This document shows positions 45,302-61,564 of a stretch of 64,000 bases of DNA, in pieces. The position numbers and the translations under genes are program-made. Below the pieces are notes generated by a model. The model did not search any database and was not told the origin of the DNA. It saw nothing but the letters and a program-made list of their open reading frames with translations. Position 1 is the first letter of the stretch. Each line of letters opens with the position of its first letter. The DNA is from Candidatus Heimdallarchaeum aukensis (GTDB taxonomy: Archaea; Asgardarchaeota; Heimdallarchaeia; Heimdallarchaeales; Heimdallarchaeaceae). Location: the NCBI GenBank assembly GCA_021513695.1, contig CP084166.1:2688001-2752000 (forward strand), written 5' to 3'.

Positions 45302-46363
45302 ATGGCAACAGTTGATAAAAAAGCAGTAGAAGAGGAAGGACCAATTCTAGATGAAACAACTTTAAAAGAAATTGAAAGCATGAAAGGAGCAGGACAATGG
45401 TCTATTGTATGGAGAAGATTGAAAAAGGATACAATGGGAATGGTAGGATTATACATTGTAACATTCCTAATATTGATGGCAATAGTGTCCTGGTTCTTAC
45501 TAATGTACGATAAATGGCTATTTAATAATGTAGCACTAACAAGAGATCCAGATAATCCATACTCACTAGCTAATCTATATGTAGACTTCTGGCTACCTGG
45601 AATGAAGGAACCAATAATACTGTTCCAACATCCAGAATGGCAATTCGCAGATCAAGTAAAATTGCCACCAAGCATTGAACACCCATTTGGAACAGATAAA
45701 AACGGAAGAGATATGTTCTCAAGAGTGTTCTTTGGAGCTACAATATCAATGGCTCTAGGTTTCATTGGACAAATGACAACCGTAATCATCGGAACAATTT
45801 TAGGATCACTTTCTGGATATTATGGTGGATTATTTGACGACATCCTACAAAGAATAGTAGAATTACTATACTCAATGCCTGGATTTATCTTGCTAGTGTT
45901 CGTAATCGTGCTATTCGAAAATACAAATATACCAGGAGGAAGATACGCAGTAGTAGTAATATTCTTCTCACTAATAAGCTGGGGAGGAACAGCACTTATA
46001 GTAAGATCGAACTTCTTCTCGCTAAAACAACAAGACTTTGTAGAAGCAGAAAAAGCACTAGGGGCAGCAGACATGAGAATAATATTCAGACATATACTAC
46101 CAAACTCACTAGCACCACTGATAATTATAATAACGCTAGGTATAGCAGGAACAATATTCACATTCGCAGCACTAGCATTCTACGGATTCGGAGACCCAAA
46201 CGTCGTTTCCTGGGGTGACGACCTTAACCGCTGGCAAAATGATCTCATGACTTATCCGTGGATGCCCATGTTTCCCGCTCTAATGATATTTTTCACAGTG
46301 TTGGGTTTCAACTTACTTGGTGACGCCCTTCGTGATGCTCTTGATCCTCGTTTGAAAGATTAA
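45302..46363 (+). CDS. oppC: Oligopeptide/dipeptide ABC transporter permease (OppC/DppC-like)
   Basis: 'VEAEKALGAADMRIIFRHILPNSLAPLII' is the EAA loop. N-terminal extension before TM1 is typical of OppC. Confidence 0.8.
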   Translation: MATVDKKAVEEEGPILDETTLKEIESMKGAGQWSIVWRRLKKDTMGMVGLYIVTFLILMAIVSWFLLMYDKWLFNNVALTRDPDNPYSLANLYVDFWLPGMKEPIILFQHPEWQFADQVKLPPSIEHPFGTDKNGRDMFSRVFFGATISMALGFIGQMTTVIIGTILGSLSGYYGGLFDDILQRIVELLYSMPGFILLVFVIVLFENTNIPGGRYAVVVIFFSLISWGGTALIVRSNFFSLKQQDFVEAEKALGAADMRIIFRHILPNSLAPLIIIITLGIAGTIFTFAALAFYGFGDPNVVSWGDDLNRWQNDLMTYPWMPMFPALMIFFTVLGFNLLGDALRDALDPRLKD

Positions 46364-46650
46364 ATTAATTCTTTTTTTCCTTTTTCAATTATTTTTTCAA
46401 CTATTTCTAAAAATAATAATACTTTGAGTTTAGATAGACTCTTGTAACTTTTAAGGAAGTAGAAGCGCTAATTTATCTCTTTCAATAAAATTATTCCAGA
46501 AAACAATTGACATTTATTTCCTATCCTGTTGTTCATCAAGCAGAATTTGAGCAACCTATGCTTATATAGCATGTGGAAAAGCTTATACAGAAGGCAGAAA
46601 AGCGACATAATTATTATAAATATCTGTAAGAAAATATAGTCGCTCAACTA

Positions 46651-47340
46651 GTGGAAAATGTAACAAGGGAGATAAAAAAATCATGCCTAAATTACTTAGG
46701 AAAAAAAATTATGTATAAATTGCTGGGAAAATTATTAATACTAATATTACTGCTTCCAATACTTATTTTTCATGGTGTGTTATCAATTAGAGGTGCTCAA
46801 CCTGTTCTCGCTTCTAGAATTTCTGAGATTACTGAAATCACAATTTCTGAATCTACTGATAACCCTTTATTTGAAAATTATACTGCTTTTAAAATCGAAG
46901 CTGAAGTAGAGATCTTAAATAGAGCTGATGAAAATCAAACAGTTATTTCTCCTGATCTTAAACTTATGATTAATGCAAGCTTGGTTAATCAATCATTGAA
47001 GTTGGTAGTGGAAGCAATGGGTTCTTGTATGGTTACTTACGACACCTATTCTCCTGGTATCACTATTGAAAATCACTCTCTTAAATTCTATATTAATCAA
47101 ACGGATTTAAGTTATCTCCCTGATGGTAATTATACTCTCTGGAGACCTATTAATGGGGGAGAAGAATTACCTACGATTATTATAATTAAATCTGGTATAA
47201 TGAATATTACTTACAGTAGTTTTGGCAATCAAGAGACTGAAGCGGTGAGCTTTTTCCTTCTGTTTCCTTTAATGTTATTCCTTCCACTCTTTTCATATGT
47301 GATTGTCTTTTCTAAATGTAAAAAGTCAGAGATTGCTTAA
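46651..47340 (+). CDS. Membrane-anchored extracellular protein (N-terminal signal/TM, N-glycosylation-sequon-rich ectodomain, C-terminal TM anchor)
   Basis: 'MYKLLGKLLILILLLPILIF' near the N-terminus, several N-x-S/T sequons, and C-terminal 'VSFFLLFPLMLFLPLFSYVIVF'. Its 3' end plus downstream sequence is repeated at 51467..51564. Confidence 0.4.
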   Translation: MENVTREIKKSCLNYLGKKIMYKLLGKLLILILLLPILIFHGVLSIRGAQPVLASRISEITEITISESTDNPLFENYTAFKIEAEVEILNRADENQTVISPDLKLMINASLVNQSLKLVVEAMGSCMVTYDTYSPGITIENHSLKFYINQTDLSYLPDGNYTLWRPINGGEELPTIIIIKSGIMNITYSSFGNQETEAVSFFLLFPLMLFLPLFSYVIVFSKCKKSEIA

Positions 47341-47391
47341 AAGTTTCTTAGAAAAAAAACCTTACCATTTTTTGTTAAATTTTTGCCTTTG
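47299..47391. repeat. Left copy of a ~95-bp direct repeat (3' end of the 46651 gene plus downstream)
   Basis: 'ttttctaaatgtaaaaagtcagagattgcttaaaagtttcttagaaaaaaaaccttaccattttttgttaaatttttgccttt' re-occurs at 51467..51564 with a few mismatches. Confidence 0.8.
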
Positions 47392-47539
47392 TAATCATCT
47401 TATGTGCTCTTTAGGAATTATTTAAGAGATTATATGCGACAAAGGAGTTTTGTACTGACGTGGATGAAGAAGTACATAAATTTTTTAATGTTTTTGGGAA
47501 TATGATTTAAATCTTTATAATTGGAGGAAAATTGTTCTC

Positions 47540-48484
47540 ATGTTATCAGCTAGCAATATATCAAAAACATATCCGAATGGTATTAAAGCATTGCAAGACG
47601 TAAATCTTGAGGTTTCCGAAGGAGAGATAATGGGATTTATTGGCCTAAATGGTGCAGGAAAGACTACTTTTATTAAAATTGCGAATGGTGTGCTGCAAAA
47701 TGATACAGGTAACATTACGATATGTGGTATGAACCCCATATCTGAATTAAAAAAAATAACTCGTAAAATTGCTTGGATTCCTCAAGATGGTCTAAGAAAA
47801 TTCAACACATTTCTTTCTGGTCGTGATAATATAATCTATTTTTCAAGACTGAAGGGTATGAATTCCTTGCAGATTAATCAAAAGTTAGATGAACTCTTGG
47901 AGCATCTATGTCCAGCAAAGGATTTTATTGATAAGAAAATTTCAATTATGAGTGGAGGACAAAAGCAATTGTGCAATCTGTTAACGGGTTTTGTGTTAGA
48001 TAGCGAGTTTCTATTTTGTGATGAAATTTCAGTAAATATTGATCCTATAACCTTAGATAAGATCTACTCTTATTTGCGAGAATATGCATCAGAAGGTAAG
48101 TCTGTATTATTAACCTCACAAAATCTCCATGAAATTGAAGAGTTGTCAAACACTATCGCACTATTACACAAAGGAAAGATTATGCAGGTAGGAAAACCAA
48201 AGGACATATCCAATAAACTTCTAAAATATGAAATAATCGACATAGGGTTTGAAGAAAGAATGAAGGAACTGAATTCAATAAAAGATTTTAGCTTAAAACT
48301 GGAATCAATAGCTGATAAAATAATTATTGATAATGAAAAAAATTTGATACGTATTTATTGTGAAGATTCACTGAGCCTTTTACCTCAAGTAGTTGAGTTT
48401 CTAAAAGAGTATAACTTTGCTGCATCTATAGAAAGTGGTAAAGCTGATTTAACTAATGCAATTATAACTTTAGCGGGGAGATAA
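47540..48484 (+). CDS. ABC transporter ATP-binding protein (ABC-2/CcmA-like) with a C-terminal accessory domain of about 90 aa
   Basis: Walker A 'GLNGAGKTT', signature 'MSGGQKQ', Walker B 'FLFCDE'. 'ggagg' lies 8 nt upstream of the ATG. Confidence 0.8.
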   Translation: MLSASNISKTYPNGIKALQDVNLEVSEGEIMGFIGLNGAGKTTFIKIANGVLQNDTGNITICGMNPISELKKITRKIAWIPQDGLRKFNTFLSGRDNIIYFSRLKGMNSLQINQKLDELLEHLCPAKDFIDKKISIMSGGQKQLCNLLTGFVLDSEFLFCDEISVNIDPITLDKIYSYLREYASEGKSVLLTSQNLHEIEELSNTIALLHKGKIMQVGKPKDISNKLLKYEIIDIGFEERMKELNSIKDFSLKLESIADKIIIDNEKNLIRIYCEDSLSLLPQVVEFLKEYNFAASIESGKADLTNAIITLAGR

Positions 48485-48486
48485 CT

Positions 48487-49326
48487 ATGAAAACGTTTAT
48501 TGCGAACTTTATAACACAAATAAAATATTTTACTGGCCTCAGAGTCATATGGATTTCAAGGATCGTTTATGTTTTTGTATCCTTACTCACCTCATTTACA
48601 ATGGGTATGGTGTATAAATTTAATGAAGCAACACAAAATTTGATAGGTGTCCAAAATGTTGCTATATTTGTTCTTACTGGCTTTTTCTTGCAATTTTTAA
48701 TGAATGCAAGTTCAGGTTATACACCAGCAGCAGTTAGGGAGATGATACAAAATGGAAACCTTGAGTATTCAGTACATTGTGGAGCTAATATTGTTCAACA
48801 AATATTGGGTATATACATCGCTTCATATCTCTTCGATTTCGTTATTTGTTTGCCTTTCATTGTTACTTTGTCTCTCTTAACCATTAATACAATTTCAGTT
48901 TACGCTTTATTGTCTTTTATAGGTTTTCTCTTTATTTCAGGTTTGTGTCTTTTTTCTATAGGCTTTCTGTTTTCTTCTCTTTACGTTCTGAGCAAGGGAT
49001 TTCTTGGTTTTCATAGTGTGATTGCAAACATAGTCTACTTTATCTGTGGGGTCTATTTTCCAATACAAGGCTATTTAACTCTATTCGGTTCTGTGGGTGG
49101 CTGGATTGCCATAGCTATTGTGTCTATTTTTCCGTATACATATGTATTTGACCTATCACGTTATATGATTTTTCTCGGGCAAAATTATCAAACGTTTTTA
49201 CCTTTTGGTATTGAATTGATAATATTCATTTGTTCTTCAATTTTAATAATGCTTATTGCAATGCAACTATTCAAGTTAGGATTTAAAAGAATGAGAAAAA
49301 AAGGTTTCATAAGTTTTATCTACTAA
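48487..49326 (+). CDS. ABC-2-type transporter permease
   Basis: Six hydrophobic helices. Start overlaps the upstream ATPase stop by spacing, which suggests an operon. Confidence 0.6.
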   Translation: MKTFIANFITQIKYFTGLRVIWISRIVYVFVSLLTSFTMGMVYKFNEATQNLIGVQNVAIFVLTGFFLQFLMNASSGYTPAAVREMIQNGNLEYSVHCGANIVQQILGIYIASYLFDFVICLPFIVTLSLLTINTISVYALLSFIGFLFISGLCLFSIGFLFSSLYVLSKGFLGFHSVIANIVYFICGVYFPIQGYLTLFGSVGGWIAIAIVSIFPYTYVFDLSRYMIFLGQNYQTFLPFGIELIIFICSSILIMLIAMQLFKLGFKRMRKKGFISFIY

Positions 49327-49451
49327 TTCTAAATTTTCATTTTTCCCTTATTTTTTCTTATTCTTCCTTTTTCTTGATTTTTAGATTGTTTTTACTGCAA
49401 CTTATTAAGTAACAATTAAAAATAATAAAACTAATTATCTCTTGATTAAAC

Positions 49452-51464
49452 GTGCGTGATAATTTTTTCTTTCTTAGAAGGTTAAATCTTTTGGGTAAAC
49501 TTGAGAAGTTCGATAAATATTTTTCTTCTATTGATTGGACTTCTATTTTGGATGAAATCAATGAACGCTTGTTTTTTTTTGGTGGAGGTTATAGTCGCAT
49601 TCTTGATTTATTTTCTGCTACTCTCATTGAACGTGGTATTTGGTTTGATTCTCGTTATTATATGAGCAATAAAGTTCTTAAAATTGTCTTTAAGGTTTTA
49701 TCTCAGTTTGCAGATAACAACCTTATTTTTTCTTTAGTTTCTGCTTTGGATGACTACGATTCTGATGTTCGTGCTGCTGTTGCTGAGCTGTTAGGTCTAA
49801 TTGGCCATTCTCTTGCTGTTGACCCCTTAATCAAATTACTCAAAGATGAGAATTGCTTTGTTCGCAGTAGTGTTGTCATAGCTTTGGGTAAGCTTGGTGA
49901 TCCTCGCTCCATTGCTGCATTTAATGATATTGCCTTATATGATGATTCCCAGGGTGTGCGTGCCGATGTTATACGATCCTTGAGAGAGATAGGTGATCCT
50001 CTTGGTGTTTCCCTTCTAATCGAAGCCCTAAAAGATGAGGATAGTATTGTTGTAAGAGCTGCTTTAGAAGTCTTGCTAGAATTGGTTGATTCTGGTTCTG
50101 TTGAGTTATTAATAGAAGCTCTAAAAGATAGGCATTGGTTTGTTCGCAGTAGTGTTGCAGAAGCGTTAGGCAAAATAGGAGACCCTAGAGCCATTGACTC
50201 CCTAGTAGCTGCCTTGAAAGATAAGGATTATTTTGTTCGCAGTAGTGTTGCAAAAGCTTTAAGTAAAATGGACGATTCTAGAGCCATTGACTCCCTAGTA
50301 GCTGCCTTAAAAGATAAAGATTTGCGAATGCGTCGTATTGCTGCAGAAGTGTTGGGAGAAATAGGTGACTCTAGGGCAGTTGAACCCTTAATAGATGTAG
50401 CTCTAAAAGATGAGGGTTTTTTTGTGCGTGAAAAAGCTATAATACTGTTAGGTGAACTAGGTGATTCTAGAGCAGTCAAGCCCTTAATAGAATTACTAAA
50501 AGATGAAGATTGGGAAGTGCGTCGTAATGTTGCAACAGCGTTGGGTAAAATAGGTGACCCTAGAGCCATTGAACCATTAATCAATGCAACTCTATATGAT
50601 GGTAATTGTGAAGTGTGTTATTTTTCTAAAGAGTCACTGATAAAAATAGGTGATATGAGTGCCGTTGAACCTCTAATAGAAGGACTGAAAGATAAGCATC
50701 CTTCTGTTCGTTGTGTTGCTGCTGAAGTGTTAGGTGAACTAGGTGATTCTAGAGCTGTCAAGCCCTTAATAGAATTACTAAAAGATGAAAATAGGAAAGT
50801 GCGTTGTGATGCTGCAGAAGCGTTAGGTAAAATAGGTGACCCTAGAGCCATTGAACCATTAATCAATGCAACATTATACGATGATGTTTTTCATGTGCGT
50901 AATAATGCTGCCTCGGCACTGAGAGAAATAGGCGTTTCTAGTGCTGTTGAACCATTAGTTAAACTAGCCTTATATGATGAAGATTCAGAAGTGCGTAAAA
51001 ATGCTGCTTATGCTTTAGGTGAAATATGTAATCCTAATGTCGTTGACCCATTAATCGATGCAGACCTATATGATGATGAGGAAGTGTGTGAAAATGCTTC
51101 CTCTGAGTTAGGTTTAAGATGTGATCCTAGTTCAGCTGAATTATTAGTAAATTTAACACTCTATGAGGAGGATTCAGTAGTGCGTGCAAGAGCTTTAAAT
51201 TTATTGGTTCAAATACGTGATTCAATTGCAATAGAAAAATTAATCAATATAGTGCTGTATGATGAAGATTCAGAAGTGCGTAAAAATGCCGCAAAAGCCT
51301 TAGGTGAGATAGGTGATACAAATTCATTTGAAACATTAATAATGAATGCCCTAGATGATGACGAGGGGAAAGTGACTAAAAATGTTGAAGAAGCTGTAAG
51401 AATAATGGGCGATCCTGAATTAATTGAATCACTAGAAGATGCCCTATTAAATAAGAGTTGGTAA
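49452..51464 (+). CDS. HEAT-repeat (PBS-lyase HEAT-like) protein with about 17 tandem 31-aa repeats. A likely ATG start is at ~49662.
   Basis: Reiterated 'D.xVR..AA.ALG.IGD.RAI.PLI..LKDE' units. The 5' 70 codons start with GTG and are low-complexity. Confidence 0.75.
   Translation: MRDNFFFLRRLNLLGKLEKFDKYFSSIDWTSILDEINERLFFFGGGYSRILDLFSATLIERGIWFDSRYYMSNKVLKIVFKVLSQFADNNLIFSLVSALDDYDSDVRAAVAELLGLIGHSLAVDPLIKLLKDENCFVRSSVVIALGKLGDPRSIAAFNDIALYDDSQGVRADVIRSLREIGDPLGVSLLIEALKDEDSIVVRAALEVLLELVDSGSVELLIEALKDRHWFVRSSVAEALGKIGDPRAIDSLVAALKDKDYFVRSSVAKALSKMDDSRAIDSLVAALKDKDLRMRRIAAEVLGEIGDSRAVEPLIDVALKDEGFFVREKAIILLGELGDSRAVKPLIELLKDEDWEVRRNVATALGKIGDPRAIEPLINATLYDGNCEVCYFSKESLIKIGDMSAVEPLIEGLKDKHPSVRCVAAEVLGELGDSRAVKPLIELLKDENRKVRCDAAEALGKIGDPRAIEPLINATLYDDVFHVRNNAASALREIGVSSAVEPLVKLALYDEDSEVRKNAAYALGEICNPNVVDPLIDADLYDDEEVCENASSELGLRCDPSSAELLVNLTLYEEDSVVRARALNLLVQIRDSIAIEKLINIVLYDEDSEVRKNAAKALGEIGDTNSFETLIMNALDDDEGKVTKNVEEAVRIMGDPELIESLEDALLNKSW
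50430..50890. repeat. Near-identical internal tandem duplication of about 280 bp (three HEAT units) inside the HEAT-repeat gene
   Basis: 'ggtgaactaggtgattctagagc.gtcaagcccttaatagaattactaaaagatgaa...ggtaaaataggtgaccctagagccattgaaccattaatcaatgcaac' occurs at ~50451 and ~50733, about 90% identical. Confidence 0.7.
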
Positions 51465-51466
51465 AT

Positions 51467-51564
51467 GTGATATGTGCTTGTTTTTTCTAAATGTAAAAAA
51501 TCAGAAACTGCTTAAAAGTTTCTTAGAAAAAAATCTTACCTTTTTTGTTAAATTTTTTCTTTTC
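51467..51564. repeat. Right copy of the ~95-bp direct repeat. Together the two copies flank the 4.1-kb ABC-2/HEAT module.
   Basis: 'ttttctaaatgtaaaaaatcagaaactgcttaaaagtttcttagaaaaaaatcttaccttttttgttaaattttttcttttc', same orientation as the left copy. Confidence 0.8.
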
Positions 51565-51597
51565 TCTTTCCTTTCTCTTCTTTTTTGCTAACTTTTG

Positions 51598-51810
51598 TTA
51601 ATACCTGAATCTTTCTCTAGATTTTAAATAAATTTCCATCAGTTTTGGTTTTTTTGACGCTCTATCCATTAGTTCTTCAATTTCTTTCTTTGGTTGTCCT
51701 TTTTCTGCTTTAATTCTTGATGTAGTAACGATCACATAAATTAACATCGCAGTAATAGCTAAAAAACCTCCAAAAACGATTATACCGAAGGCTACTATTA
51801 CTATATTCAT
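51598..51810 (-). CDS. Small single-TM protein (copy 1 of a tandemly duplicated gene)
   Basis: 70 aa 'MNIVIVAFGIIVFGGFLAITAMLIYVIVTTSRIKAEKGQPKKEIEELMDRASKK'. About 75% identical to 52082..52297. Confidence 0.45.
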   Translation of the reverse strand: MNIVIVAFGIIVFGGFLAITAMLIYVIVTTSRIKAEKGQPKKEIEELMDRASKKPKLMEIYLKSRERFRY

Positions 51811-51879
51811 CGAATAATAATAGCTTTCAACAATTAAATACTTTTGGAAAAAAGGTATAATTAATTATCTCTTAATTTT

Positions 51880-52065
51880 TTGTTCATATGCCTTCATTAG
51901 TTCCTTAAAGCTTCTTCTTTTGTAATATCTTTTGGATTTAAGGTAAGTGTTCCATCGTTTATCGCTTTTTCTGTTATTTCTTCTAGCTGTTCTTCTTTTT
52001 CTCCCTCCTCTTTCAATGTTTTTGGTAATTTTGTTAATTAACCTTTCTTGAAGTTCTTCTACTTT
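51880..52065 (-). pseudogene. 3'-terminal fragment (about 60 codons) of an iron-alcohol-dehydrogenase gene, frameshifted and with the stop mutated. It is a relic of a ~480-bp tandem duplication.
   Basis: The DNA aligns with the 3' end of the intact ADH gene at 52361..52545 ('ttcatatgccttcattag...aaagcttcttcttttgt.a.atcttttggatttaaggtaagtg'). There is a ~5-nt indel relative to the intact copy and a tta->ttg stop change. Confidence 0.55.
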
Positions 52066-52081
52066 TTTTTACTGACTTATG

Positions 52082-52297
52082 TTAAAACCATAATCTTCCC
52101 TTATACTGTAAATAATTTTCCATTAATTTTGTATTTTTTGCTGCTCTATCCATTAATTCTTCAATTTTCTTTTTTGGTTGTCCTTTTATTGGTTTGATTC
52201 TTGATGTCGTAGCAATTAGATAAATTAATATCGACATAATAGCAAAAAAGCCTACAAAAACAATTACTCCAAAGGCTACTATTAGTGAACTCATCAT
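52082..52297 (-). CDS. Small single-TM protein (copy 2)
   Basis: 71 aa 'MMSSLIVAFGVIVFVGFFAIMSILIYLIATTSRIKPIKGQPKKKIEELMDRAAKN'. Confidence 0.45.
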   Translation of the reverse strand: MMSSLIVAFGVIVFVGFFAIMSILIYLIATTSRIKPIKGQPKKKIEELMDRAAKNTKLMENYLQYKGRLWF

Positions 52298-52360
52298 ATA
52301 ATAATAGTATTCGACAGTTATATACTTTTGGAAAAAGGGTATTAATTATTTCTTAATTTT

Positions 52361-53551
52361 TTATTCATATGCCTTCATTAGTATCCTTAAAGCTTCTTCT
52401 TTTGTTACATCTTTTGGATTTAAGGTAAGTGATCCATCATTTATCGCTTTTTCTGCTATTTCTTCTAGTTGTTCTTCTTTCACTCCTGCTTCTTTCAATG
52501 TTTTTGGTAATTTTATTAGTTCATTTAACCTCTCTTGAAGTTCTTCTATTTTTTCTATGAACTTTCTAGCTCTTTCTTTTTCTTCAGTTTTTACATATAT
52601 TTCTTCTCCCGCTAGTGGTAAAAGTAGTTCTTTTAACTCTTCTTTAATCTCTTCGTAGTTGAATTTAAGCACATGTGGTAGAAATATGTTCATTGCTACT
52701 CCATGAGGAATTTTTGCTACTGCTCCTGCAGCGTGTCCTAAACTATGTACTAGACCGACCATAGAATTAGAAAAAGCTACTCCTGCCATTGTTGCTGCTA
52801 TTGCCATTTCTAATCTTCTTTCTTTGTCCTTTCCATTTTTCACTAGTTCAACGATGTTTTTACTAATTAATTCTATAGCCTTCCATGCATAGACGTCGCT
52901 AAAGAGGTTTTTTTGTAAACAAGTATATGCTTCTATAGCGTGAGTTAGTGCGTCCATAGCTGTTAAAGCTGTTATATAAGCTGGTAGGGTAATAGTCATT
53001 CGTGGATCTATTACTGCTACGTCAGGCATAAGATATCGTGAAGTAAATAACATTTTAGTTGCAGACTTGTCATCTTTTATCACAGCAACTGCTGTTACTT
53101 CTGAACCTGTACCTGCAGTAGTAGGAATAACAAAAAGAGGTCTAAGCGGACGTTTTAATCTTTCTGCTCCAGCAAATTCTTTTAGATCTTTTCCTTTTTC
53201 TGAAACTAAGATATTTACTCCTTTTGCTGTATCTATTACTGATCCTCCGCCTATTGCTATTATCCCATCACATTTTTTTTCATTATAGATTTCTGCTATT
53301 TTATTTACTTCCTCGGTTGAAGAATCTTGAGGTATGTCATCTATTATAGCAGGGAATATTACATCTGCTCCTCCACATGCTTTAATTACTTTATCTACCA
53401 ACCCTGCTTTGTTTACTCCTCTATCAGTGAGAATGATAGGTCTTTTTACTCTGAAATTATCAAATTCCGAAGGCAAGTTTTCTAAAGCTTTTTTGCCTGC
53501 TAATATTTTTGTCTTATTCTGAAATTCAAAATATTCTTTCATTTTTTTCAC
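52361..53551 (-). CDS. Iron-containing (group III) alcohol dehydrogenase
   Basis: 'AIGGGSVIDTAKG', 'TTAGTGSEVT', 'DALTHAIEAY' and 'GLVHSLGHAAG' are Fe-ADH metal/NAD motifs. Confidence 0.85.
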   Translation of the reverse strand: MKKMKEYFEFQNKTKILAGKKALENLPSEFDNFRVKRPIILTDRGVNKAGLVDKVIKACGGADVIFPAIIDDIPQDSSTEEVNKIAEIYNEKKCDGIIAIGGGSVIDTAKGVNILVSEKGKDLKEFAGAERLKRPLRPLFVIPTTAGTGSEVTAVAVIKDDKSATKMLFTSRYLMPDVAVIDPRMTITLPAYITALTAMDALTHAIEAYTCLQKNLFSDVYAWKAIELISKNIVELVKNGKDKERRLEMAIAATMAGVAFSNSMVGLVHSLGHAAGAVAKIPHGVAMNIFLPHVLKFNYEEIKEELKELLLPLAGEEIYVKTEEKERARKFIEKIEELQERLNELIKLPKTLKEAGVKEEQLEEIAEKAINDGSLTLNPKDVTKEEALRILMKAYE

Positions 53552-53556
53552 CTTTA

Positions 53557-55935
53557 TTAAATGTTAAAAGGAATTGAGAATAAATATAGGTAAATTCTAA
53601 CAATATATCTCTTCATTAAATTAATAGTAGGTATTTTTCGCATTATTCTTTTTGCAATAATTCTTGGAAAAAGATAGGTTTCTGTGATATTTAGGCAACG
53701 TATTAGAGACATAGCAATTTGAGTATCTCCTTTAACTTTTATTGCATTAGATGCATAAGCATGATGTATGCCTTTCTGAGCAGTCATTAACTCAAAAGCA
53801 GCGTCTATAGTTCTAAAAGTAATAACTAGATCTGCTTGTTTTTCTGGAATCTTTTGAGGATTTAAGACTCCTTTTTTATTCTTTAAAAGCCCTAAACTAG
53901 TTTCATAGTTATCTACATTAAATAAAATCTTGAAATTTGTTGGCCAAGATCTAATCTCTTGCTTAATATTAGAATCAATAGTTGATAATGTCTTCATTGC
54001 TCTTCCTAAAATTGTAAAAACTAAAGATACTATTCTTTCTTTAATTCTCTTAGGTTTAGGTTGGAATCCTTCTTCTATTCCTAACTTTTTCATGACCTTT
54101 GCTGTTGGGACACCGTTTCTTGAATAACCTCTAATCTTGTAATACTTTTCTTGCATCTCTTCTAAGGGGACAACTTTTTTCTTTTTATCGCTCTCTCTTC
54201 CTTCATTTAGGAATCGTTCAGGAAGAGTATCATCTATTCTTGAGACACCTATCAAGGTGTTCATATATCTTTCTAGAATATGAATTCTTTCACCTGCTTT
54301 GAGAAAATCACGAGAACTTTGTTTTATTCCAGTTACAGTTTCAAATAATTTAGAGTAAATACTTATATCTAATACTTTTTGCGTTATTCTTGGAAAATAG
54401 CTAATAAAGATTTTCAGAAATATTTTTGGCGGATACTTTGCTATTGGTGCTTCTAACATAAAGGCATAAGAAGTAAAAATACATAATTGTAGTGAATTAA
54501 TTGCTGAAAAGAGATTTTCCATGTAATAAACAAACTGTGCTTTAGCTCGCTTCGATTCTCCTTTAAGAAAATTGAAAAATGCTTCTAGGGTGAATAATGA
54601 TGCAGAAAGGTGACACGCTCCTCTATTTGCAACACTGTAGGATAGCCCTTGTCCCCAACATCCTCTTGGATCATATCCTGAAAATTCTAGACCTTTAATA
54701 TTCATTGCAAATCCTTTTCCACCATATTTTTCTGCTAGCCTTTTAGTTCCAAGGGCTAACTCTTCTCCTATTCCTTTTCTGTATGCAATGTCATAAAGTA
54801 TTTCAGAAACTCCTTCTGGAGAACCAAATTTTAGTGGAAAAGAAAAGAGATTTTTCTCATTAGCTTCTATGGCATATGCTAATGTTACAGATATAGAAAT
54901 AGTATCTAATCCTAATCTTGAACAAATTTCATTCCATTCAGCAATTTTTTCAGCATCATATATCTCTAGATTAGAACCAAATAAACTTGTGGTCTCATAT
55001 TCTGGAGCTTGAATTAATTTACCGTTGAACATTCCTTTATGTCCACAGAGGATTGCACAGTTCCTGCAAGAGCTGTATTTCTTATAGAATTCGGACTTTA
55101 ATCTTTCACCATACAGTTCACTAGCTTTTTCGCTCATACCTTTTGTGAAATTGCGAACTGGTAAGATCTTTTTTTCGTTACATATCCTAAAACCAGCGTT
55201 TGTGCCATAATTTCTGTATAAATCTGAAGTATATTCGTTTCTATTAATATACTTAATTGCTTTTCTTTTTATTTTCATGTATTTCTTTTCTTTTTTTGGT
55301 TTTATTCTGAAAGAACCTTTTTCAACAACAATAGCTTTAAGGTTTTTAGCTCCAAAGACAGCTCCTATTCCTCCTCTACCAAAAAATCTGTGTCCAGAAG
55401 CTACATTGGCATAAAGAACCCTATTTTCTCCTGCAGGACCAATAACTAGATTCCCTTTATTTTTTGCTTCTAGTAATTCTTGAGTCTCAAAGATATCTTT
55501 ACCCCAAATTTTAGAAGCACTGTTAAATGAAACACCGTTTTCTGTAATAGATAGATAAGTTGGTTCTTTTGCTTGCCCTTTTATTATTACTCCGTCATAA
55601 CCTACAGATTTCAAGAAAAACGCAAATGACCCTCCACAAGATGAAGAAACTATTAAACCTGTAAGCGGAGATTTAGTAACAGCAGCAAAGCGAGAAGAAT
55701 TGGGTGCACCAGTTCCAACCATTACTCCACCAAAGATGGCAATAATGTTATCTTCACCTAAAGGGTCACAAGACAGATCCATCTTTTTATATAGATAGTA
55801 AATGGCTAATCCCTTTCCTCCGAGATAAAGTTTTCTTTCTTCATTACTTATAGAAACTGTTGTAAAAGCTTTCTTTGTAAGATCAATCTCAAGTAGTTTG
55901 TTGTGAGACCCTAAAATCAACCTAGGACTAGTCAT
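53557..55935 (-). CDS. AOR-family aldehyde:ferredoxin oxidoreductase fused to a C-terminal SCP2 (sterol-carrier-protein-2) domain and a hydrophobic/basic tail
   Basis: Residues 1-~615 are collinear with the AOR at 5807..7651 ('GGKGLAIYYL', 'SPLTGLIVSSSCGGSFAFFLKSVGYDGVIIKG', 'GPAGENRVLYA'). Residues ~640-750 read 'NFKILFNVDNYETSLGLLKNKKGVLNPQKIPEKQADLVITFRTIDAAFELMTAQKGIHHAYASNAIKVKGDTQIAMSLIRCL'. This parallels the SCP2 core '[46 protein letters not shown]'. Confidence 0.8.
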   Translation of the reverse strand: MTSPRLILGSHNKLLEIDLTKKAFTTVSISNEERKLYLGGKGLAIYYLYKKMDLSCDPLGEDNIIAIFGGVMVGTGAPNSSRFAAVTKSPLTGLIVSSSCGGSFAFFLKSVGYDGVIIKGQAKEPTYLSITENGVSFNSASKIWGKDIFETQELLEAKNKGNLVIGPAGENRVLYANVASGHRFFGRGGIGAVFGAKNLKAIVVEKGSFRIKPKKEKKYMKIKRKAIKYINRNEYTSDLYRNYGTNAGFRICNEKKILPVRNFTKGMSEKASELYGERLKSEFYKKYSSCRNCAILCGHKGMFNGKLIQAPEYETTSLFGSNLEIYDAEKIAEWNEICSRLGLDTISISVTLAYAIEANEKNLFSFPLKFGSPEGVSEILYDIAYRKGIGEELALGTKRLAEKYGGKGFAMNIKGLEFSGYDPRGCWGQGLSYSVANRGACHLSASLFTLEAFFNFLKGESKRAKAQFVYYMENLFSAINSLQLCIFTSYAFMLEAPIAKYPPKIFLKIFISYFPRITQKVLDISIYSKLFETVTGIKQSSRDFLKAGERIHILERYMNTLIGVSRIDDTLPERFLNEGRESDKKKKVVPLEEMQEKYYKIRGYSRNGVPTAKVMKKLGIEEGFQPKPKRIKERIVSLVFTILGRAMKTLSTIDSNIKQEIRSWPTNFKILFNVDNYETSLGLLKNKKGVLNPQKIPEKQADLVITFRTIDAAFELMTAQKGIHHAYASNAIKVKGDTQIAMSLIRCLNITETYLFPRIIAKRIMRKIPTINLMKRYIVRIYLYLFSIPFNI

Positions 55936-56078
55936 TTTTTTTAAAAGAAAAGAACTTGTTTAAATTTTTTTGTACTGGTAACGGAAATATTATGGTTTTC
56001 TATATTGGTAGAACTCAAAGAGAGAAAGTGAAAAAAAATGAAGAAGCAAACAAAAAAAGAAAAAAGAAAAAAAGGAGT

Positions 56079-59021
56079 TTAGTTAGTTTTAGCGAAAACA
56101 AGACCTTTTTTCTTGAGTAATAGCAGTATTACTGTAATAAGACCAATGCCGCCCACTGCAGCTAGAGGAATAATATACATTAATGGATTAATTTCTTTTT
56201 CTACACTGTAATTTATTTCAAATATTTCAGTTTCTGTAGTTAAAGATGAGTCATCAGTTGCACTTATCTTGAAAATTAAGGTTCCTGATTTTTTGGGTAA
56301 TTCTATGTCAAAGAAGTAACAATCTGTCTCATTGTTGTAAAGCATTGTTTCAACCATCCATTCATCTTCTGTAGCAAATTTGTAAGAAAACAGGACATTT
56401 GTTATATTTCCATCATCGGTCACATTAGCTCTGATTCTTATCGCTTTTTCTTCTAGGACTAAAGGAGAAGAGAATGACGTATCTAACACGATAATTATTG
56501 GAGCTAAAGCTTTTGTAAACTCTATAATGGTAATATTAGATTCTGAAGAAAATCCAGCAAGATCATATGCTCTTACTTTGTATGTCAAGTTCCCTGAAGA
56601 AATAATGACCGGTATCGAAACTGTGTATAAAGATATAGAAGAGTCATATTTCATTGAAAGTATTTTCCAATCGCTTTCTTCATCAAATGTGTAATAAACT
56701 TCTACTGTAAGTAATCCTCCTTTATCTGTGACATTTGCTTGAACTTCAATATCATAACCCCCAGCTAGGTCAAGAGGACTTGTAATAGGAATTAGACTAA
56801 TATTTGGAGCTAATCCATCTGAATAATAACTAAAGGTAGAACTATTAACTGAGTTATCTAATGCGTCAGTTAAGGTAATATAAAATAGAACATCTGTATC
56901 CATATTTGTTCTGGGGATAGTAGAAATAAATTCATAACCTATTGGAATAGTATAATGCTTTAATACAATCTCATAATTTATTACAGAACCAGAATATAAA
57001 TCAGAATAATCTGTAATTTTTAGAGTGAAATTAGCTTCTGTGAAGTCAGATTGAGTTAACCCAAGTTCTAGTAAGTCGATGCTTAAAGTAAAACTTGTTG
57101 GTCTAGTTTCTCTATCAAAAATCAAAAATTCTCTTCCATCATCTAATTCTAACCAGATTCTAATATCTGCAGATTTCTCGTGAGTGATGTCAACGTTTAG
57201 TGTTGCTTCTGATACTCCTCCTCCTCTTTCAACATTTAAAGTTACAAGTGTTGTACTATTGTCTTCAATTAAGGCAGGTAAGTCTACAGCAGTAAAAGTT
57301 TCCATATAATCCATAAAAGAATTGTAGTTTATGACATAGGATATTGTGTTGTTCCACGTTATTCCTCCATCTGTACTATACCAAACAACAGAAGTTTTAA
57401 GGTCTGTGTAGTCGGTCGCATTAAATAACACTTGGACATCGGTAATATTTGAGATTACTGGGGGGTTAACAAGTAGTTTGCCCAAAATAGGTGCTGCACC
57501 ATCAGCATAATAGAAGTTGACTGAAGTGTTCCCCACATTGTCAAAAAAGTCATAAGTTTCAAAGAAGTACTCAACAAACGTTGTTTCGTTTGTTTCAGGT
57601 AGAATAACTGTAAAAGTTGTGGGGGATGTTCCTTCTTCTATTGGCGTTGTATTGACCATCTGTTTTCTTAAGAAAGTTGTTCCGTTAGGCATTGAGTATA
57701 AAATATCAACTCTTTTTGTTCCTGAAGGGTCAACAAATTTTGCAGTAATATTAACTTCTGAACTTGTTAATGTTACATTTTCTATTCCTGGAATAGATAT
57801 TCCGCCATAAATTGAAATTGAATTTACTCTGGGATTCATGTTATCTACTATGGCGGTTTTTAATCCAGATGATCCCTCTCTTCCTTTTTTAGAGTCAACT
57901 ATATCTGAAGCATTTATCATGTATAGAAGATTAGCTTCTACATTAGAAATATCGTCTATTTGAAGTGTTGTACGGTAACTTGCCGCTGTACTACTTAAAT
58001 CTGTCAAATATTCAAAGTTTTGCGATTTATAGTCTTCCTCACCTTCAATCTTATAGTATAAAGTTACACTAGTATCATTAATCGTTTCTACTCCATCATA
58101 ATCCGTAACTGTGACATTAAATACAAAACCAGTGTCTGCATTAATAACTGTTGGTACTTCATGAATGGTAATCTTGGGGGTCCAATCCATAAGAAATGTG
58201 TATGTTTCACTGGTCATTGAATTATTGAATAGATCAAACGAGGTAACATAATATTCAACCCAAGTGGGAGTGTTAGTTGTGACGCTAGGTGGAGTTATAT
58301 CTCCACTAAAATATTCTTCATATATACGCAAGTAATTAAATACTGGGTCATTTACATTAGGATGATCTCCAATATGTGTGATCGCAAATATCTTATATCC
58401 TAATACAGATTCTGTGCTATCATAATCTACAGGAAATGGTGAAACTTCTTCTGTCCCTCCATATGATCCATCAATATATCTTTGTTCCCATGTTTCTGAA
58501 GTAATATTAAAGGCTTCAATTGAGACATAGACAAGATTGTTACGACTTGTTTCCTTATCAATTGAGCAATATATTCTCTTTATTACATCTCCTTCATTAG
58601 CTATGAAAATGTATTCACCATATCTCCATTCTGTTTTATCATTCGTTTTGATTCCAGTGTCAGTTATGTATCCTGTTGATTCAAACTCTGTCTCATCCAC
58701 AACTAGTTGTAAATCTCTACTCATCGAAGCGTTAAACAAAGTATCGTTTAGTGAAATATACTTCCACCACAGAGTAGCATTCCTTATTTCATCTGAATCA
58801 CTTATTGTCAAAGAAACCGTTGCTGTTTCATTGCTATTTGGAGCATCAGGACTAACCTGTGGTGTTCCGAAGAAACTATATTCTGAACTGAATTTTATAG
58901 GTGTTTCTCTGTCTAAAGTTCGGTTTGAAGATAAGTAAATATTCAGCGATACTTCTACACTAGCAGTTATTAAGACAGCTGTAATTAAAATAATTTGGCT
59001 AAATTTCTTTAATTCTTTCAT
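56079..59021 (-). CDS. Large secreted surface protein (980 aa) with repeated Ig/beta-sandwich-like modules and a C-terminal TM anchor
   Basis: N-terminal signal 'IILITAVLITASVEVSL'. Many N-x-S/T sequons. C-terminal 'PLMYIIPLAAVGGIGLITVILLLLKKKG'. Confidence 0.6.
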   Translation of the reverse strand: MKELKKFSQIILITAVLITASVEVSLNIYLSSNRTLDRETPIKFSSEYSFFGTPQVSPDAPNSNETATVSLTISDSDEIRNATLWWKYISLNDTLFNASMSRDLQLVVDETEFESTGYITDTGIKTNDKTEWRYGEYIFIANEGDVIKRIYCSIDKETSRNNLVYVSIEAFNITSETWEQRYIDGSYGGTEEVSPFPVDYDSTESVLGYKIFAITHIGDHPNVNDPVFNYLRIYEEYFSGDITPPSVTTNTPTWVEYYVTSFDLFNNSMTSETYTFLMDWTPKITIHEVPTVINADTGFVFNVTVTDYDGVETINDTSVTLYYKIEGEEDYKSQNFEYLTDLSSTAASYRTTLQIDDISNVEANLLYMINASDIVDSKKGREGSSGLKTAIVDNMNPRVNSISIYGGISIPGIENVTLTSSEVNITAKFVDPSGTKRVDILYSMPNGTTFLRKQMVNTTPIEEGTSPTTFTVILPETNETTFVEYFFETYDFFDNVGNTSVNFYYADGAAPILGKLLVNPPVISNITDVQVLFNATDYTDLKTSVVWYSTDGGITWNNTISYVINYNSFMDYMETFTAVDLPALIEDNSTTLVTLNVERGGGVSEATLNVDITHEKSADIRIWLELDDGREFLIFDRETRPTSFTLSIDLLELGLTQSDFTEANFTLKITDYSDLYSGSVINYEIVLKHYTIPIGYEFISTIPRTNMDTDVLFYITLTDALDNSVNSSTFSYYSDGLAPNISLIPITSPLDLAGGYDIEVQANVTDKGGLLTVEVYYTFDEESDWKILSMKYDSSISLYTVSIPVIISSGNLTYKVRAYDLAGFSSESNITIIEFTKALAPIIIVLDTSFSSPLVLEEKAIRIRANVTDDGNITNVLFSYKFATEDEWMVETMLYNNETDCYFFDIELPKKSGTLIFKISATDDSSLTTETEIFEINYSVEKEINPLMYIIPLAAVGGIGLITVILLLLKKKGLVFAKTN

Positions 59022-59297
59022 TATTTTAACCTTTTATAGTTTACTAGTACATAGTTACTTTTCTTACATATATAAGGTAACTTCTCCAAAAAAGTAAAGT
59101 TTGTCTCTTAAACGAAGAAAAATAAGTAAAGTGGAATAATTCCTTAAAAAACTAGTATATTTTTATTTTCTAATTAAAGTAAATTATTAATAAGATTACT
59201 ATCTTTCAAAAAAGTTATAAAGTTCTGTAGTTTTTACGTTTATAACAAGGTAAAGCATTAAGATAAACTTATGCAAATGAAAATTTAAAGTGATTTT

Positions 59298-60347
59298 ATG
59301 AGTGTAAGAGCACCGGAAGATATTCTACTAGAAGTAAAAGGCTTAAAAACCTACTTCTTTACAGAAGAAGGAGTAGTGAAAGCTATAGAATCAATTAATT
59401 TTGTTGTTTATAAATCAGAAACATTAGGGCTAGTAGGAGAATCTGGATCTGGAAAAAGTGTAACTGCTCTAAGCATCTTAGGAATAGTACCGGACCCACC
59501 GGGAAAAGTCCTTGAAGGTGAAGTTATTTTCCATGGTCAAGATTTACGTAAATTAAGCCCTGCTGAAATGCGCAAAATCAGAGGAAACCAGATTGCCCAA
59601 GTATTTCAAGATCCAATGACCTCTTTGAACCCTGTTTTCACTGTTGGAGACCAAATCGGAGAAGCTATTATTCTTCATCAACAAGTTTCAAGGAAGGAAG
59701 CTAGAGAAAAAGCTATCAAAATTATGTCTCTTGTTGGTATTCCTTCTGCAGATGAACGTGTTGATAACTATCCCTTTGAGTTCTCAGGAGGTATGCGCCA
59801 AAGAGTTATGATTGCTATGGCTCTCAGTTGTAATCCTGAGCTTCTCATCGCAGACGAACCTACAACAGCTTTAGACGTAACTATTCAAGCTCAAATTCTC
59901 GAGCTTCTAAAAGCAACCAGTGAAGAGTTCGACATGAGTATTATTCTTATTACACATGATATGGGTGTTATTGCAGAGATGTGTGATCGTGTAGCAGTCA
60001 TGTATGCAGGGTATATTGCTGAAGTTAGCGACATAATGACTATTTTCAAGTCTCCTTTGCATCCTTATACCAAAGGTTTGCTCGGAGCTATTCCTCGTCC
60101 TGATGCGAAAAGAGAAGACTTGACGATTATTAGAGGAAGTATTCCTAATCTTATTAATCCTCCATCTGGATGTCGTTTCCATCCTCGATGTGATTACTGG
60201 ATTAAAGGCTTATGTGAAGTGAAAGTTCCTGAGTTTATAGAAATTGAACCAGGACATGAATTAATGTGCCACTTATACACTGAAGAAGGTAAAGCTTATC
60301 TGGAAGCTCACAAAGACCACCCCAGAATATCTTATGCAGCAAAGTAG
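59298..60347 (+). CDS. oppD: Oligopeptide ABC transporter ATPase (OppD/DppD-like)
   Basis: Walker A 'GESGSGKS', signature 'FSGGMRQR', Walker B '[12 protein letters not shown]', and a C-terminal oligopeptide-ABC 'GCRFHPRC' motif. Confidence 0.85.
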
Positions 60348-60358
60348 GTGAATAAAGA

Positions 60359-61564
60359 ATGTCAACACCATCTATTATAGAAAAATTACAAGCAAAAAAA
60401 GGAAAAGATGCAAGAATTAAAACTAAAGAACTCGAGGAAGATGTTGTTCTCGAAGTTGAAAATTTAGCTAAATACTTTAAAATCCCTAATCCTATGGATA
60501 CAACTTGGTTCTTAGTTGCTTTTGTAGCCTCATTAGTAATATTCGCATTTTTCAAAATTATTGGACTTATTCTTATAGGATTGATTATTCTAGCTTATTT
60601 CATTATACCTTATATTCCACCATTCAATAAAAGACCAAAATTTGTTTATCTGAAAGCAGTTGATGGTCTAAACCTTAAAATTAGAAAACAAAAAATTGTA
60701 GGTCTTGTAGGAGAAAGTGGATGTGGAAAGAGTACAGCAGCTAGAACTATTTTACGTCTTCTCGAACCAACCAAAGGTTCTGTTTATTTCAGGGGTATAG
60801 ACATCAACAGATTAACTTCTGATGAATTAAAAGAAATGAGAAGATATATGCAGATAGTGTTTCAAGATCCTTATGCCAGTCTTAACCCAAGAGCAACAGC
60901 TTTTGATATTATATCTGAACCATATATCATTCATGGAGTAGCTTCTGGAGACGAAATAAGTATTAATGTTCTCAGATTGTTAAAGGAAGTAGGATTAGCT
61001 CCTCACCACGCTTACAGATATCCTCATGAGTTCTCTGGTGGTCAAAGACAAAGAATAGGAATTGCTCGTGCTTTAGCTTTAGAGCCTGATTTCATCATCA
61101 TGGACGAACCTGTAAGTAACTTAGACGTTTCTGTAAGAGCAGCAATTATTCAACTAATTCTAAAATTACAACAAAAAATGGGTTTGACTTATCTATTTAT
61201 TGCTCATGATCTTGCACTAGTTCGTATCCTCTGTGATGAAGTAAATGTTATGTATCTCGGAAAACTAATGGAAGCTGGAACAAGCGATGAAATCTTCGAG
61301 GATATGAAGCATCCTTATACAAAAGCTTTAGTTTCTGCAGTTCCAATAGCTGACCCAACAAAAAGATCTAAGAAAATATTCTTACAAGGAGATATTCCTA
61401 CACCAATTAATCCTCCACCAGGTTGCCGTTTCCAAACTCGATGTCCTCTTGTGAGTGACATCTGTCGAGCTGAAGATCCTAAACCTAAATATTTCAGTAA
61501 AACACATGTTGTATATTGCCACAATGTTGAGGGTGGAGAAGATTCTCCAAACGCTTTTGAATAA
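60359..61564 (+). CDS. oppF: Oligopeptide ABC transporter ATPase (OppF/DppF-like) carrying a hydrophobic insertion of about 40 aa ahead of the Walker A motif
   Basis: Walker A 'GESGCGKST', 'FSGGQRQR', 'IIMDEPVSNLD' and 'GCRFQTRCP'. The inserted segment is 'TTWFLVAFVASLVIFAFFKIIGLILIGLIILAYFIIPYIPPF'. Confidence 0.8.
   Translation: MSTPSIIEKLQAKKGKDARIKTKELEEDVVLEVENLAKYFKIPNPMDTTWFLVAFVASLVIFAFFKIIGLILIGLIILAYFIIPYIPPFNKRPKFVYLKAVDGLNLKIRKQKIVGLVGESGCGKSTAARTILRLLEPTKGSVYFRGIDINRLTSDELKEMRRYMQIVFQDPYASLNPRATAFDIISEPYIIHGVASGDEISINVLRLLKEVGLAPHHAYRYPHEFSGGQRQRIGIARALALEPDFIIMDEPVSNLDVSVRAAIIQLILKLQQKMGLTYLFIAHDLALVRILCDEVNVMYLGKLMEAGTSDEIFEDMKHPYTKALVSAVPIADPTKRSKKIFLQGDIPTPINPPPGCRFQTRCPLVSDICRAEDPKPKYFSKTHVVYCHNVEGGEDSPNAFE

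Follow-up and report, generated by a model that had tools for sequence, protein, structure and literature searches.

The genes for an Opp/Dpp-type ATP-binding cassette (ABC) importer in the archaeon Candidatus Heimdallarchaeum aukensis are arranged in two pairs, with 12,934 bp lying between the permease genes oppB and oppC and the ATPase genes oppD and oppF. The region was analyzed within a stretch of 64,000 nucleotides (contig CP084166.1, positions 2,688,001 to 2,752,000), hereafter referred to as the window, to whose own numbering all coordinates refer. Based on a comparison with related genomes, we consider it likely that this arrangement arose by stepwise accretion of genes in a long-standing spacer, which varies between lineages and separates two halves of one transporter, each with a promoter of its own. 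The interval itself (46364–59297) is a composite of nine genes, natively composed and occupying a gap that varies between lineages. A first-pass annotation of the window had interpreted it as an operon split by one or more insertions; our analysis supports derivation of the interval by insertion, but pre-existing units appear to have been pushed apart, and no contiguous operon was cut.

The spacer between oppC and oppD varies between lineages

Twelve related Heimdallarchaeaceae loci were compared, and the set outside the genus Heimdallarchaeum comprises eight loci (L004, L007, L008, L010, L024, L026, L027 and L028). All eight keep the order oppB-oppC-gap-oppD-oppF, with gaps of 0.3–4.3 kb. The gap is empty in L010 (0.32 kb) and L028 (0.36 kb), contains no open reading frame (ORF) in L004 (1.0 kb) and carries a single 262-aa gene in L008 (1.3 kb). 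More is found in L024 (1.9 kb; a 187-aa ORF and a member of a 260-aa family with a shorter ORF of 188 aa), L027 (2.7 kb; DegV and a 260-aa gene), L007 (2.8 kb; a NosD-like beta-helix protein, a 121-aa gene and a 260-aa gene) and L026 (4.3 kb; a DUF2341 surface protein, a 227-aa anchored protein and a 260-aa gene). Using tblastn, we detected no homologue of any gene of the H. aukensis interval in these eight loci, and no pseudogene remnant either. Nucleotide similarity between the window and its relatives ends 20–37 nt past the oppC stop codon (46383–46400) and restarts 20–260 nt upstream of oppD (59040–59275).

Because the eight loci have gaps of only 0.3–4.3 kb without any of these genes, and because the genome with the closest homologue of the ABC-2 transporter pair described below (GCA_016840095.1) encodes it at an unrelated locus and has one different gene in its own opp gap, the interval is best explained as derived by insertion. 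The assumption that oppBCDF would be contiguous in related genomes did not hold: no relative examined shows it, and a lineage-specific spacer of 0.3–12.9 kb, which does not fit a single oppBCDF operon, is present in every lineage. The same flanks enclose differing cargo in the eight out-of-genus loci and in three Heimdallarchaeum-type populations, as is characteristic of an insertion hot spot.

A core block shared with the sister species and a cassette specific to H. aukensis

H. aukensis and H. endolithica share 88% average nucleotide identity overall, and sites of variability between them are sharply bounded by conserved sequence (PMC8813620). Gene order in H. endolithica was read from protein accessions and locus tags (K9W46). 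This reading was adopted because the H. aukensis accessions UJG40557–40569 (K9W45 tags, in steps of five) match the ORF map of the window exactly, namely oppB, oppC, the 209-aa gene, the ABC ATPase, its permease, the HEAT gene, two small transmembrane (TM) genes, ADH, AOR, the 980-aa gene, oppD and oppF. In H. endolithica, oppB (UJG43284) and oppC (43285) are followed by 43286, the 209-aa gene (43287, K9W46_13055), two small TM genes (43288, K9W46_13060; 43289, K9W46_13065), ADH (43290), AOR (43291), five further genes (43292–43296), oppD (43297) and oppF (43298). From this order, a core block of the 209-aa gene, two small TM genes, Fe-ADH and AOR appears to predate the divergence of the two species. 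For the first-pass annotation, an ancestral interleaved arrangement in related genomes would speak against a split operon. Since the core is shared with H. endolithica, the split would be ancestral for the genus and built in several steps, whereas the loci outside the genus lack the genes altogether.

The core block begins with a membrane-anchored surface protein of 209 aa (46711–47340, plus strand; longest ORF from 46651; UJG40559.1). Its translation has N- and C-terminal hydrophobic segments, it has no match in the family libraries searched (Pfam, NCBIfam, PADLOC), and its orthologue in H. endolithica (UJG43287.1) is at least 90% identical. The remaining core genes lie on the minus strand. 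Two single-TM paralogues of 70/71 aa (51598–51810 and 52082–52297) precede the gene for an iron-containing alcohol dehydrogenase, Fe-ADH (52361–53551; 393 aa as annotated, from 53542; UJG40565.1; Pfam Fe-ADH and ADH_Fe_C), whose orthologue is UJG43290.1, and that for an aldehyde:ferredoxin oxidoreductase, AOR (53557–55935; 792 aa; UJG40566.1), with strong matches to AFOR_N and AFOR_C and UJG43291.1 as its orthologue. The description of the latter as an AOR-SCP2 fusion is secure for the AOR part, while the SCP2 match in the C-terminal extension of about 170 aa is weak (E 8e-4) and lies under the Pfam cut-off. Five close relatives carry an AOR with this SCP2-like tail at 54–95% identity, and both named ones belong to Heimdallarchaeaceae. 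The other named relatives of full length come from bacteria (Anaerolineaceae, Thermodesulfobacteriota, Desulfosoma; 44–49% identity), which hints at a possible old transfer between domains; a metagenome scan with the AOR-SCP2 protein gave no match. A second, canonical AOR of 614 aa is encoded elsewhere in the window (5807–7651).

The tandem duplication reported by the first-pass annotation was confirmed. Two units of about 484 bp (51573–52056 and 52057–52540, minus strand) each consist of a 70/71-aa small TM gene and an ADH 3' end, and the ADH copy at 51902–52039 is a non-functional fragment. H. endolithica has both small TM genes as well (UJG43288.1, UJG43289.1).

Next to the core block, on the side of oppD, lies the gene for a surface protein of 980 aa (56079–59021, minus strand; UJG40567.1), which has a signal anchor at its N-terminus and a TM segment at its C-terminus. 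The gene is transcribed divergently from oppD. With this gene, the last five genes of the interval (two small TM, ADH, AOR, 980 aa) are all on the minus strand, in agreement with the earlier description of several genes in opposite orientation. The 980-aa protein has no Pfam, NCBIfam or PDB match, and a scan of genome contigs with it returned a single 5-kb locus at 50% identity, which is uninformative. We also considered it as a cryptic OppA; judged by sequence, this candidate finds no support in Pfam, NCBIfam or PDB.

The remaining three genes form a cassette that H. endolithica lacks. It comprises an ABC ATPase of 314 aa (47540–48484; ABC_tran and a DrrA-like NCBIfam match), an ABC-2-type permease of 279 aa (48487–49326), homologues of which carry ABC2_membrane, and a HEAT (PBS-lyase-like) repeat protein of 670 aa (49452–51464; Pfam HEAT_2, E 7e-114), all on the plus strand. 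The HEAT gene contains internal repeat units of about 93–96 and 189 nt. At the oppC-oppD gap, the ABC-2 pair (47540–49326) is specific to H. aukensis. Among 5.8 billion proteins, no homologue of the permease other than itself exceeds 51% identity, and homologues of the pair at 46–47% identity sit in unrelated neighbourhoods.

This cassette of 4.1 kb is bracketed by direct repeats, which had already been noted and proved to be real (about 100 nt, 86–90% identical, two copies in the window versus 0 expected). The left copy (47295–47396, plus strand) takes in ~15 codons at the 3' end of the 209-aa gene and ~55 nt downstream, and the right copy (51470–51569, plus strand) consists of a 14-codon relic of a 209-aa-type 3' end with downstream sequence, beginning 5 nt past the stop codon of the HEAT gene, with which the cassette ends. 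The H. endolithica order has no gene between the 209-aa gene (K9W46_13055) and a small TM gene (K9W46_13060); the cassette is thus missing exactly between the genes that the repeats bracket. The corresponding "empty site" is also found in a 992-nt JGI metagenomic contig, where the 3' part of the 209-aa gene stands beside a small TM gene. Direct repeats derived from the target together with an empty site in the sister genome are what a Campbell-type insertion would leave.

Composition, mobile elements and recombination

The interval is not compositionally foreign. The comparison proposed by the first-pass annotation revealed no deviation of the interval from the rest of the window (GC 0.320 vs 0.322; GC content at third codon positions, GC3, 0.223 vs 0.214), the tetranucleotide profile correlates at r = 0.986, and GC, GC3 and codon distance show no significant difference (p 0.2–0.9). 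No integrase- or transposase-like family was detected among the window proteins scanned, tRNA and Rfam scans of the window gave no match, and terminal repeats are absent from the outer borders at 46384/59196. Of the classical features of genomic islands, a recombinase, a tRNA, att-type repeats and atypical composition are therefore lacking here, and presence/absence polymorphism among relatives between conserved flanks is found. The PADLOC search with the interval proteins yielded generic ATPase, HEAT and coiled-coil matches only, and no defence system.

Sequences of mobile type were nevertheless found in the same gap of close relatives. In L023 (OppD 99% identical in amino acids), the oppD promoter region is preceded, at a distance of about 400 nt, by an IS6-family transposase fragment (175–543, minus strand; NCBIfam E 3.8e-8, under the full-length cut-off); the window has no match to this fragment and no IS6-family copies that could bound an IS6/IS26 translocatable unit. 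In L019 (OppC 96%), a lysine/glutamate-rich ORF and a small helix-turn-helix (HTH) ORF directly follow oppC (2691–3106, minus strand).

Strain L016 shares the right half of the interval and reveals a mosaic. Nucleotide identity to L016 amounts to 98–100% across oppDF and the coiled-coil genes downstream of them, to 94–98% in most 300-nt bins of ADH/AOR and to 80–93% in the 980-aa gene, with a sharp step at ~59,100. Synonymous divergence (dS) follows the same blocks, with 0.01–0.05 for oppDF and the coiled-coil genes, 0.14–0.18 for ADH/AOR and 0.61 for the 980-aa gene. Given these steps, the right border of the interval is also a recombination boundary, and the 980-aa gene looks like a hot spot of allele replacement by recombination.

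A probable single transporter in two putative transcription units

As described by the first-pass annotation, oppBC and oppDF are on the same strand about 12.9 kb apart; the ORF map and Pfam matches give the exact distance of 12,934 bp. All four genes are intact and on the plus strand, encoding an OppB-type permease of 335 aa (44275–45282; UJG40557.1; Pfam BPD_transp_1, E 4e-34), an OppC-type permease of 353 aa (45302–46363; UJG40558.1; OppC_N, E 2e-10, and BPD_transp_1, E 8e-30), and OppD- and OppF-type ATPases of 349 aa (59298–60347) and 401 aa (60359–61564; UJG40569.1), each with Pfam ABC_tran and oligo_HPY domains (oligo_HPY E 2e-18 and 4e-18). The genes are spaced by 19 nt within the first pair and by 11 nt within the second. 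Two BPD_transp_1 permeases, one of them with OppC_N, and two oligo_HPY ATPases are the set expected of an Opp/Dpp importer, and the best solved-structure matches of the ATPases are OppF/DppF/DppD chains. NCBIfam models of the Opp/Nik/Dpp B type match OppB, each under its equivalog cut-off, and all equivalog or subfamily scores of the Opp proteins are far under the cut-offs (e.g. Opp2B 235 vs 350; OppD subfamily 371 vs 575). NCBIfam thus places the proteins in the peptide/nickel family below every equivalog cut-off, and no specific substrate class is therefore assigned.

The four opp genes are under strong purifying selection. OppB is 96% identical in amino acids to its L010 counterpart, with a ratio of nonsynonymous to synonymous divergence (dN/dS) of 0.02, OppD is 95–96% identical to those of L010/L004 (dN/dS 0.02–0.04), and across all four genes dN/dS is 0.02–0.15, in comparisons with relatives for which dS is saturated or nearly so. 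Since both pairs travel together in every out-of-genus lineage compared, oppBC and oppDF very probably encode one transporter, and the suggestion that they might belong to two is disfavoured by the B-C-gap-D-F order kept in all lineages examined.

The absence of an OppA-like binding protein held up, as no SBP_bac_5 domain was detected across the 64 kb among the ORFs scanned (up to 39.7 kb, those of 120 aa or more; beyond that point, the called genes). None was recorded beside the opp locus in the relatives' loci either.

Upstream of oppB, by ~77 nt from the start codon, lies the TATA-like element GCTTATAAATGC (44187–44198, plus strand), a putative oppBC promoter. It has one exact match in the whole window, and its CTTA-AAA core and the next GC are invariant in six lineages within otherwise diverged upstream sequence. 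A second TATA-like element, AAAAGTTATAAA (59210–59221, plus strand), is located 77–88 nt upstream of the oppD ATG and may serve as promoter for oppDF and the coiled-coil genes. The TTATAAA in its A-rich block is invariant in six lineages, those with 0.3-kb gaps included, and the GTGA-type ribosome-binding motif of oppD is likewise invariant across lineages. T-runs directly follow oppC (46370–46400) and are present after oppC in every lineage read. Because of these conserved TATA-like elements at oppB and oppD and the oligo-T after oppC, the two pairs would represent separate transcription units. A scan for bacterial-type promoters and terminators gave fewer matches than shuffled sequence and is irrelevant for an archaeon.

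A stepwise model and its alternatives

Taken together, we propose that the Opp/Dpp importer of Heimdallarchaeaceae consists of two adjacent, separately promoted gene sets, oppBC on one side and oppDF with two coiled-coil genes on the other, and that the spacer between them is an old variable gap whose length and genes differ in each of the lineages examined. The core block with the 209-aa gene, a small TM gene, Fe-ADH and the AOR with the SCP2-like tail would have entered this gap in the ancestor of the genus Heimdallarchaeum, and the small TM gene would later have been duplicated in tandem. In H. aukensis, the large surface-protein gene adjoins the core block. The 4.1-kb ABC-2/HEAT cassette would have been a further addition in the lineage of this species, entering just downstream of the 209-aa gene and leaving the direct repeats of ~100 nt. 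Homology-mediated integration, either of the Campbell type or by template switching, is the most likely route, with either an archaeon of similar composition or another part of the same genome as the source of the DNA. If each pair has kept its own promoter, with a terminator-like T-tract after oppC, the gap lies between transcription units and these insertions would interrupt no transcript. We infer the direction and mechanism of each insertion, and the four Opp proteins presumably still assemble into one transporter.

Several points weigh against this model. The arrangement in H. endolithica was taken from accession and locus-tag order alone and not from the DNA, and no identity has been assigned to the gap genes UJG43286 and UJG43292–43296. 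The ABC-2/HEAT difference can be read in either direction, since a gain by insertion in H. aukensis explains it no better than a loss in H. endolithica through deletion between the repeats. Furthermore, the repeats are only 86–90% identical, so that the event would have to be old or the incoming copy already diverged. The core block was not traced to any donor locus, and the failure to find a binding protein among the ORFs scanned bears on both the completeness and the substrate of the transporter. Finally, the promoter and terminator roles are assigned from conservation alone; since the TATA-like motif near oppD is no rarer than chance in this AT-rich DNA, it is positional conservation that carries the promoter argument.

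Acquisition of the whole 12.9 kb in one event, as a horizontally transferred island or integrative mobile element, would account for the polymorphism between relatives, the mostly bacterial affiliation of the AOR-SCP2 subfamily outside a few Heimdallarchaeaceae, the IS6 fragment (L023) and small HTH ORF (L019) in the same gap, and it would fit the many mobile genetic elements reported in these genomes (PMC8813620). We nevertheless give this explanation little credence, as there is no integrase, transposase, tRNA or terminal repeat at 46384/59196 and the composition is indistinguishable from that of the rest of the window. In addition, the content has at least two ages, with a core shared with H. 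endolithica and a cassette found only in H. aukensis, and divergence to L016 differs two- to four-fold between blocks. The reverse scenario, in which the family started out with the interleaved arrangement and repeated deletions produced the short gaps seen elsewhere, agrees with the presence of a gap in every lineage and of the core in the sister species, and such deletions could proceed via direct repeats like the pair at 47295/51470. It is unlikely as well, since the eight out-of-genus loci retain neither an island gene nor a pseudogene remnant detectable by tblastn, their gaps are filled with unrelated genes instead, and homologues of the ABC-2 pair occur in other contexts.

It may further be asked whether anything functional was split at all, given that oppBC and oppDF could be halves of two transporters or could have ceased to cooperate. 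Separate conserved promoter-like elements for each pair, the distinct codon usage of oppB and oppC (GC3 0.30 vs 0.19–0.26), solitary oppC paralogues in related genomes (L011, L012) and the lack of an OppA gene nearby would be compatible with this. However, the B-C-gap-D-F order persists in all lineages examined down to 75% OppC identity, two permeases plus two oligo_HPY ATPases give a fitting stoichiometry, all four genes are under similarly strong purifying selection, and the GC3 difference is conserved in all relatives and is thus a gene-specific property and no sign of separate origin or recent transfer; we therefore regard two transporters as improbable. An assembly artefact is very unlikely, to the point of being negligible. 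It would require a chimeric join inside the repetitive HEAT gene, and two independent Logan contigs (SRR15988954) match the window at 100% identity over both junctions, one running from oppC into the HEAT gene and the other from the HEAT 3' end through oppF and beyond. Both end in the HEAT repeats, which leaves only 50215–51259 (~1 kb) without independent cover, so that the HEAT repeat number there rests on the long-read assembly. However, the 3.08-Mb source genome was circularised with long reads (PMC8813620), the two contigs carry the two halves of a locus that are neighbours in all relatives, and the H. endolithica accession order independently places ADH/AOR between oppC and oppD. Stepwise accretion in a variable spacer thus remains the explanation that we prefer.

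A more speculative reading, which we consider rather unlikely, would treat the oppC-oppD gap as a dedicated, recombinase-free landing pad that captures cassettes via short homology and holds non-random cargo aiding the Opp importer. Capture by short homology is suggested by the ~100-nt repeats flanking the ABC-2/HEAT cassette. Membrane-anchored or non-cytoplasmic-looking proteins recur in the gap, namely the 209-aa and 980-aa proteins of H. aukensis, the DUF2341 and 227-aa proteins of L026 and the NosD-like protein of L007. Between the 209-aa and the L026 227-aa protein, as between the 980-aa and an L026 582-aa protein, no homology was detected. If this reading were true, gap proteins and ADH/AOR might serve an Opp importer devoid of a classical binding protein, with surface capture of substrates and disposal of aldehydes from peptide fermentation as possible consequences. 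A role of AOR and ADH in disposing of such aldehydes is conceivable.

Further features of the locus and its surroundings

In one clade, six lineages (L008, 11355–12143; L007, 3837–4616; L026, 8962–9744; L027, 8426–9214; L024, 8383–9176; L025, 485–1249) encode a conserved protein of ~260 aa directly in front of oppD; it is absent from Heimdallarchaeum-type loci. It has no Pfam or NCBIfam match, and no relics of its gene were detected in the window, L004, L010 or L028.

Wherever the contig reaches far enough, oppF is followed by two genes for coiled-coil proteins of ~250 aa (61654–62421 and 62433–63197 in the window, plus strand). They have no Pfam family above threshold and evolve fast (44–62% and 37–54% amino acid identity where OppD shows 83–97%). 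Directly upstream of oppB, on the opposite strand, lies a gene for an Arf-family small GTPase with a C-terminal extension of ~150 aa (42864–43844). Within this upstream context, HisRS is kept in H. endolithica, and HisRS, Arf and a TPR protein are kept in the L016-type strain; the HisRS/Arf/TPR context is absent in more distant relatives. M20 and C69 peptidase genes are located ~8–10 kb upstream of the transporter (33703–36554), with S8 and caspase-like C14 peptidase genes further away (19720–22048), which is consistent with a peptide-utilisation neighbourhood.

The OppF protein carries a hydrophobic insertion of ~45 residues near its N-terminus (residues ~46–90; TTWFLVAFV...GLILIGLII..AYF..PYIPPF); in the ATPase domain, it separates the first beta-strand from the "LKAVDG" strand. 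The insertion is highly conserved in six lineages, similarity to solved OppF/DppF structures begins only at residue ~97, and it may form a membrane-embedded hairpin in an ABC ATPase subunit.

In synonymous codon usage, oppB and oppC are the strongest outliers of the window (distance 0.28–0.30 vs a mean of 0.13), and their raised GC3 (0.30 vs 0.21) recurs in L010, L004 and L008. Recent foreign origin of the two genes was considered on account of this usage and rejected, as the raised GC3 is kept in all relatives. L011 (8051–9109; GCA_016840095.1) and L012 (10001–11053) each contain a solitary oppC paralogue, with 70% and 53% identity to the OppC of the window, respectively; neither adjoins an oppB, oppD or oppF gene, and one of the two genomes also has a full B-C-gap-D-F locus.

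Comparison with known systems

Bacterial oppABCDF and dppABCDF operons encode the peptide/nickel uptake family of ABC transporters (TC 3.A.1.5). The H. aukensis locus shares with them two BPD_transp_1 permeases (one with OppC_N), two oligo_HPY ATPases, the B-C/D-F order and a tight spacing of 11–19 nt within the pairs. It differs in lacking a cis-encoded binding protein of the cluster-C/SBP_bac_5 type, in that the B-C and D-F pairs of Heimdallarchaeaceae are never contiguous and have separate promoter-like elements, and in an OppF with a conserved hydrophobic insertion, and it misses all NCBIfam equivalog cut-offs.

Chromosomal hot spots, or regions of genome plasticity between conserved core genes, have been described for bacterial pangenomes. 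Like these, the gap combines conserved flanks (oppC and the oppD promoter) with lineage-specific cargo in about ten lineages and some remnants of mobile elements; unlike them, it lies inside a transporter cluster, and its cargo is natively composed and without a recombinase. Elements of the IS6/IS26 family mobilise genes as translocatable units or via cointegrates, and the transposase fragment near the oppD promoter region of L023 recalls this process, whereas the window contains neither an insertion sequence copy nor an 8-bp target duplication, and its ~100-nt repeats stem from the 3' end of a host gene. Modules of AOR and alcohol dehydrogenase are known from peptide-fermenting Thermococcales. 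As there, a tungsten-type AOR adjoins an ADH, here beside a peptide-type importer and ~8–10 kb from the M20/C69 peptidases; in contrast, the H. aukensis enzyme carries an SCP2-like tail and finds its nearest full-length relatives among bacteria. A metabolic link between AOR/ADH and the transporter is conjecture.

For the same genomes, Wu et al. 2022 reported "complete local displacement" of CRISPR-Cas loci whose flanks are conserved, as well as tRNA-integrated aloposons and HeimV/HeimM elements (PMC8813620). The sharp variability bounded by conserved sequence in the same two genomes is common to those sites and to the opp locus, which differs in having no tRNA target, no giant Otus/Ephialtes genes, no CRISPR and no viral hallmark genes. 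The term "ABC transporter" is absent from the main text of the genome paper, and the opp locus is not discussed there (PMC8813620).

The locus is therefore a case of genome plasticity of a known kind between conserved flanks and no new molecular system. A conserved transporter locus would tolerate repeated insertions because its halves are, as we infer, transcribed separately. It offers a dated, stepwise example of how a gene neighbourhood is eroded and rebuilt in Heimdallarchaeia, which of all Asgard lineages stand closest to eukaryotes, and, with its conserved flanks and variable cargo, a practical comparison point for gene flow among Heimdallarchaeum populations.

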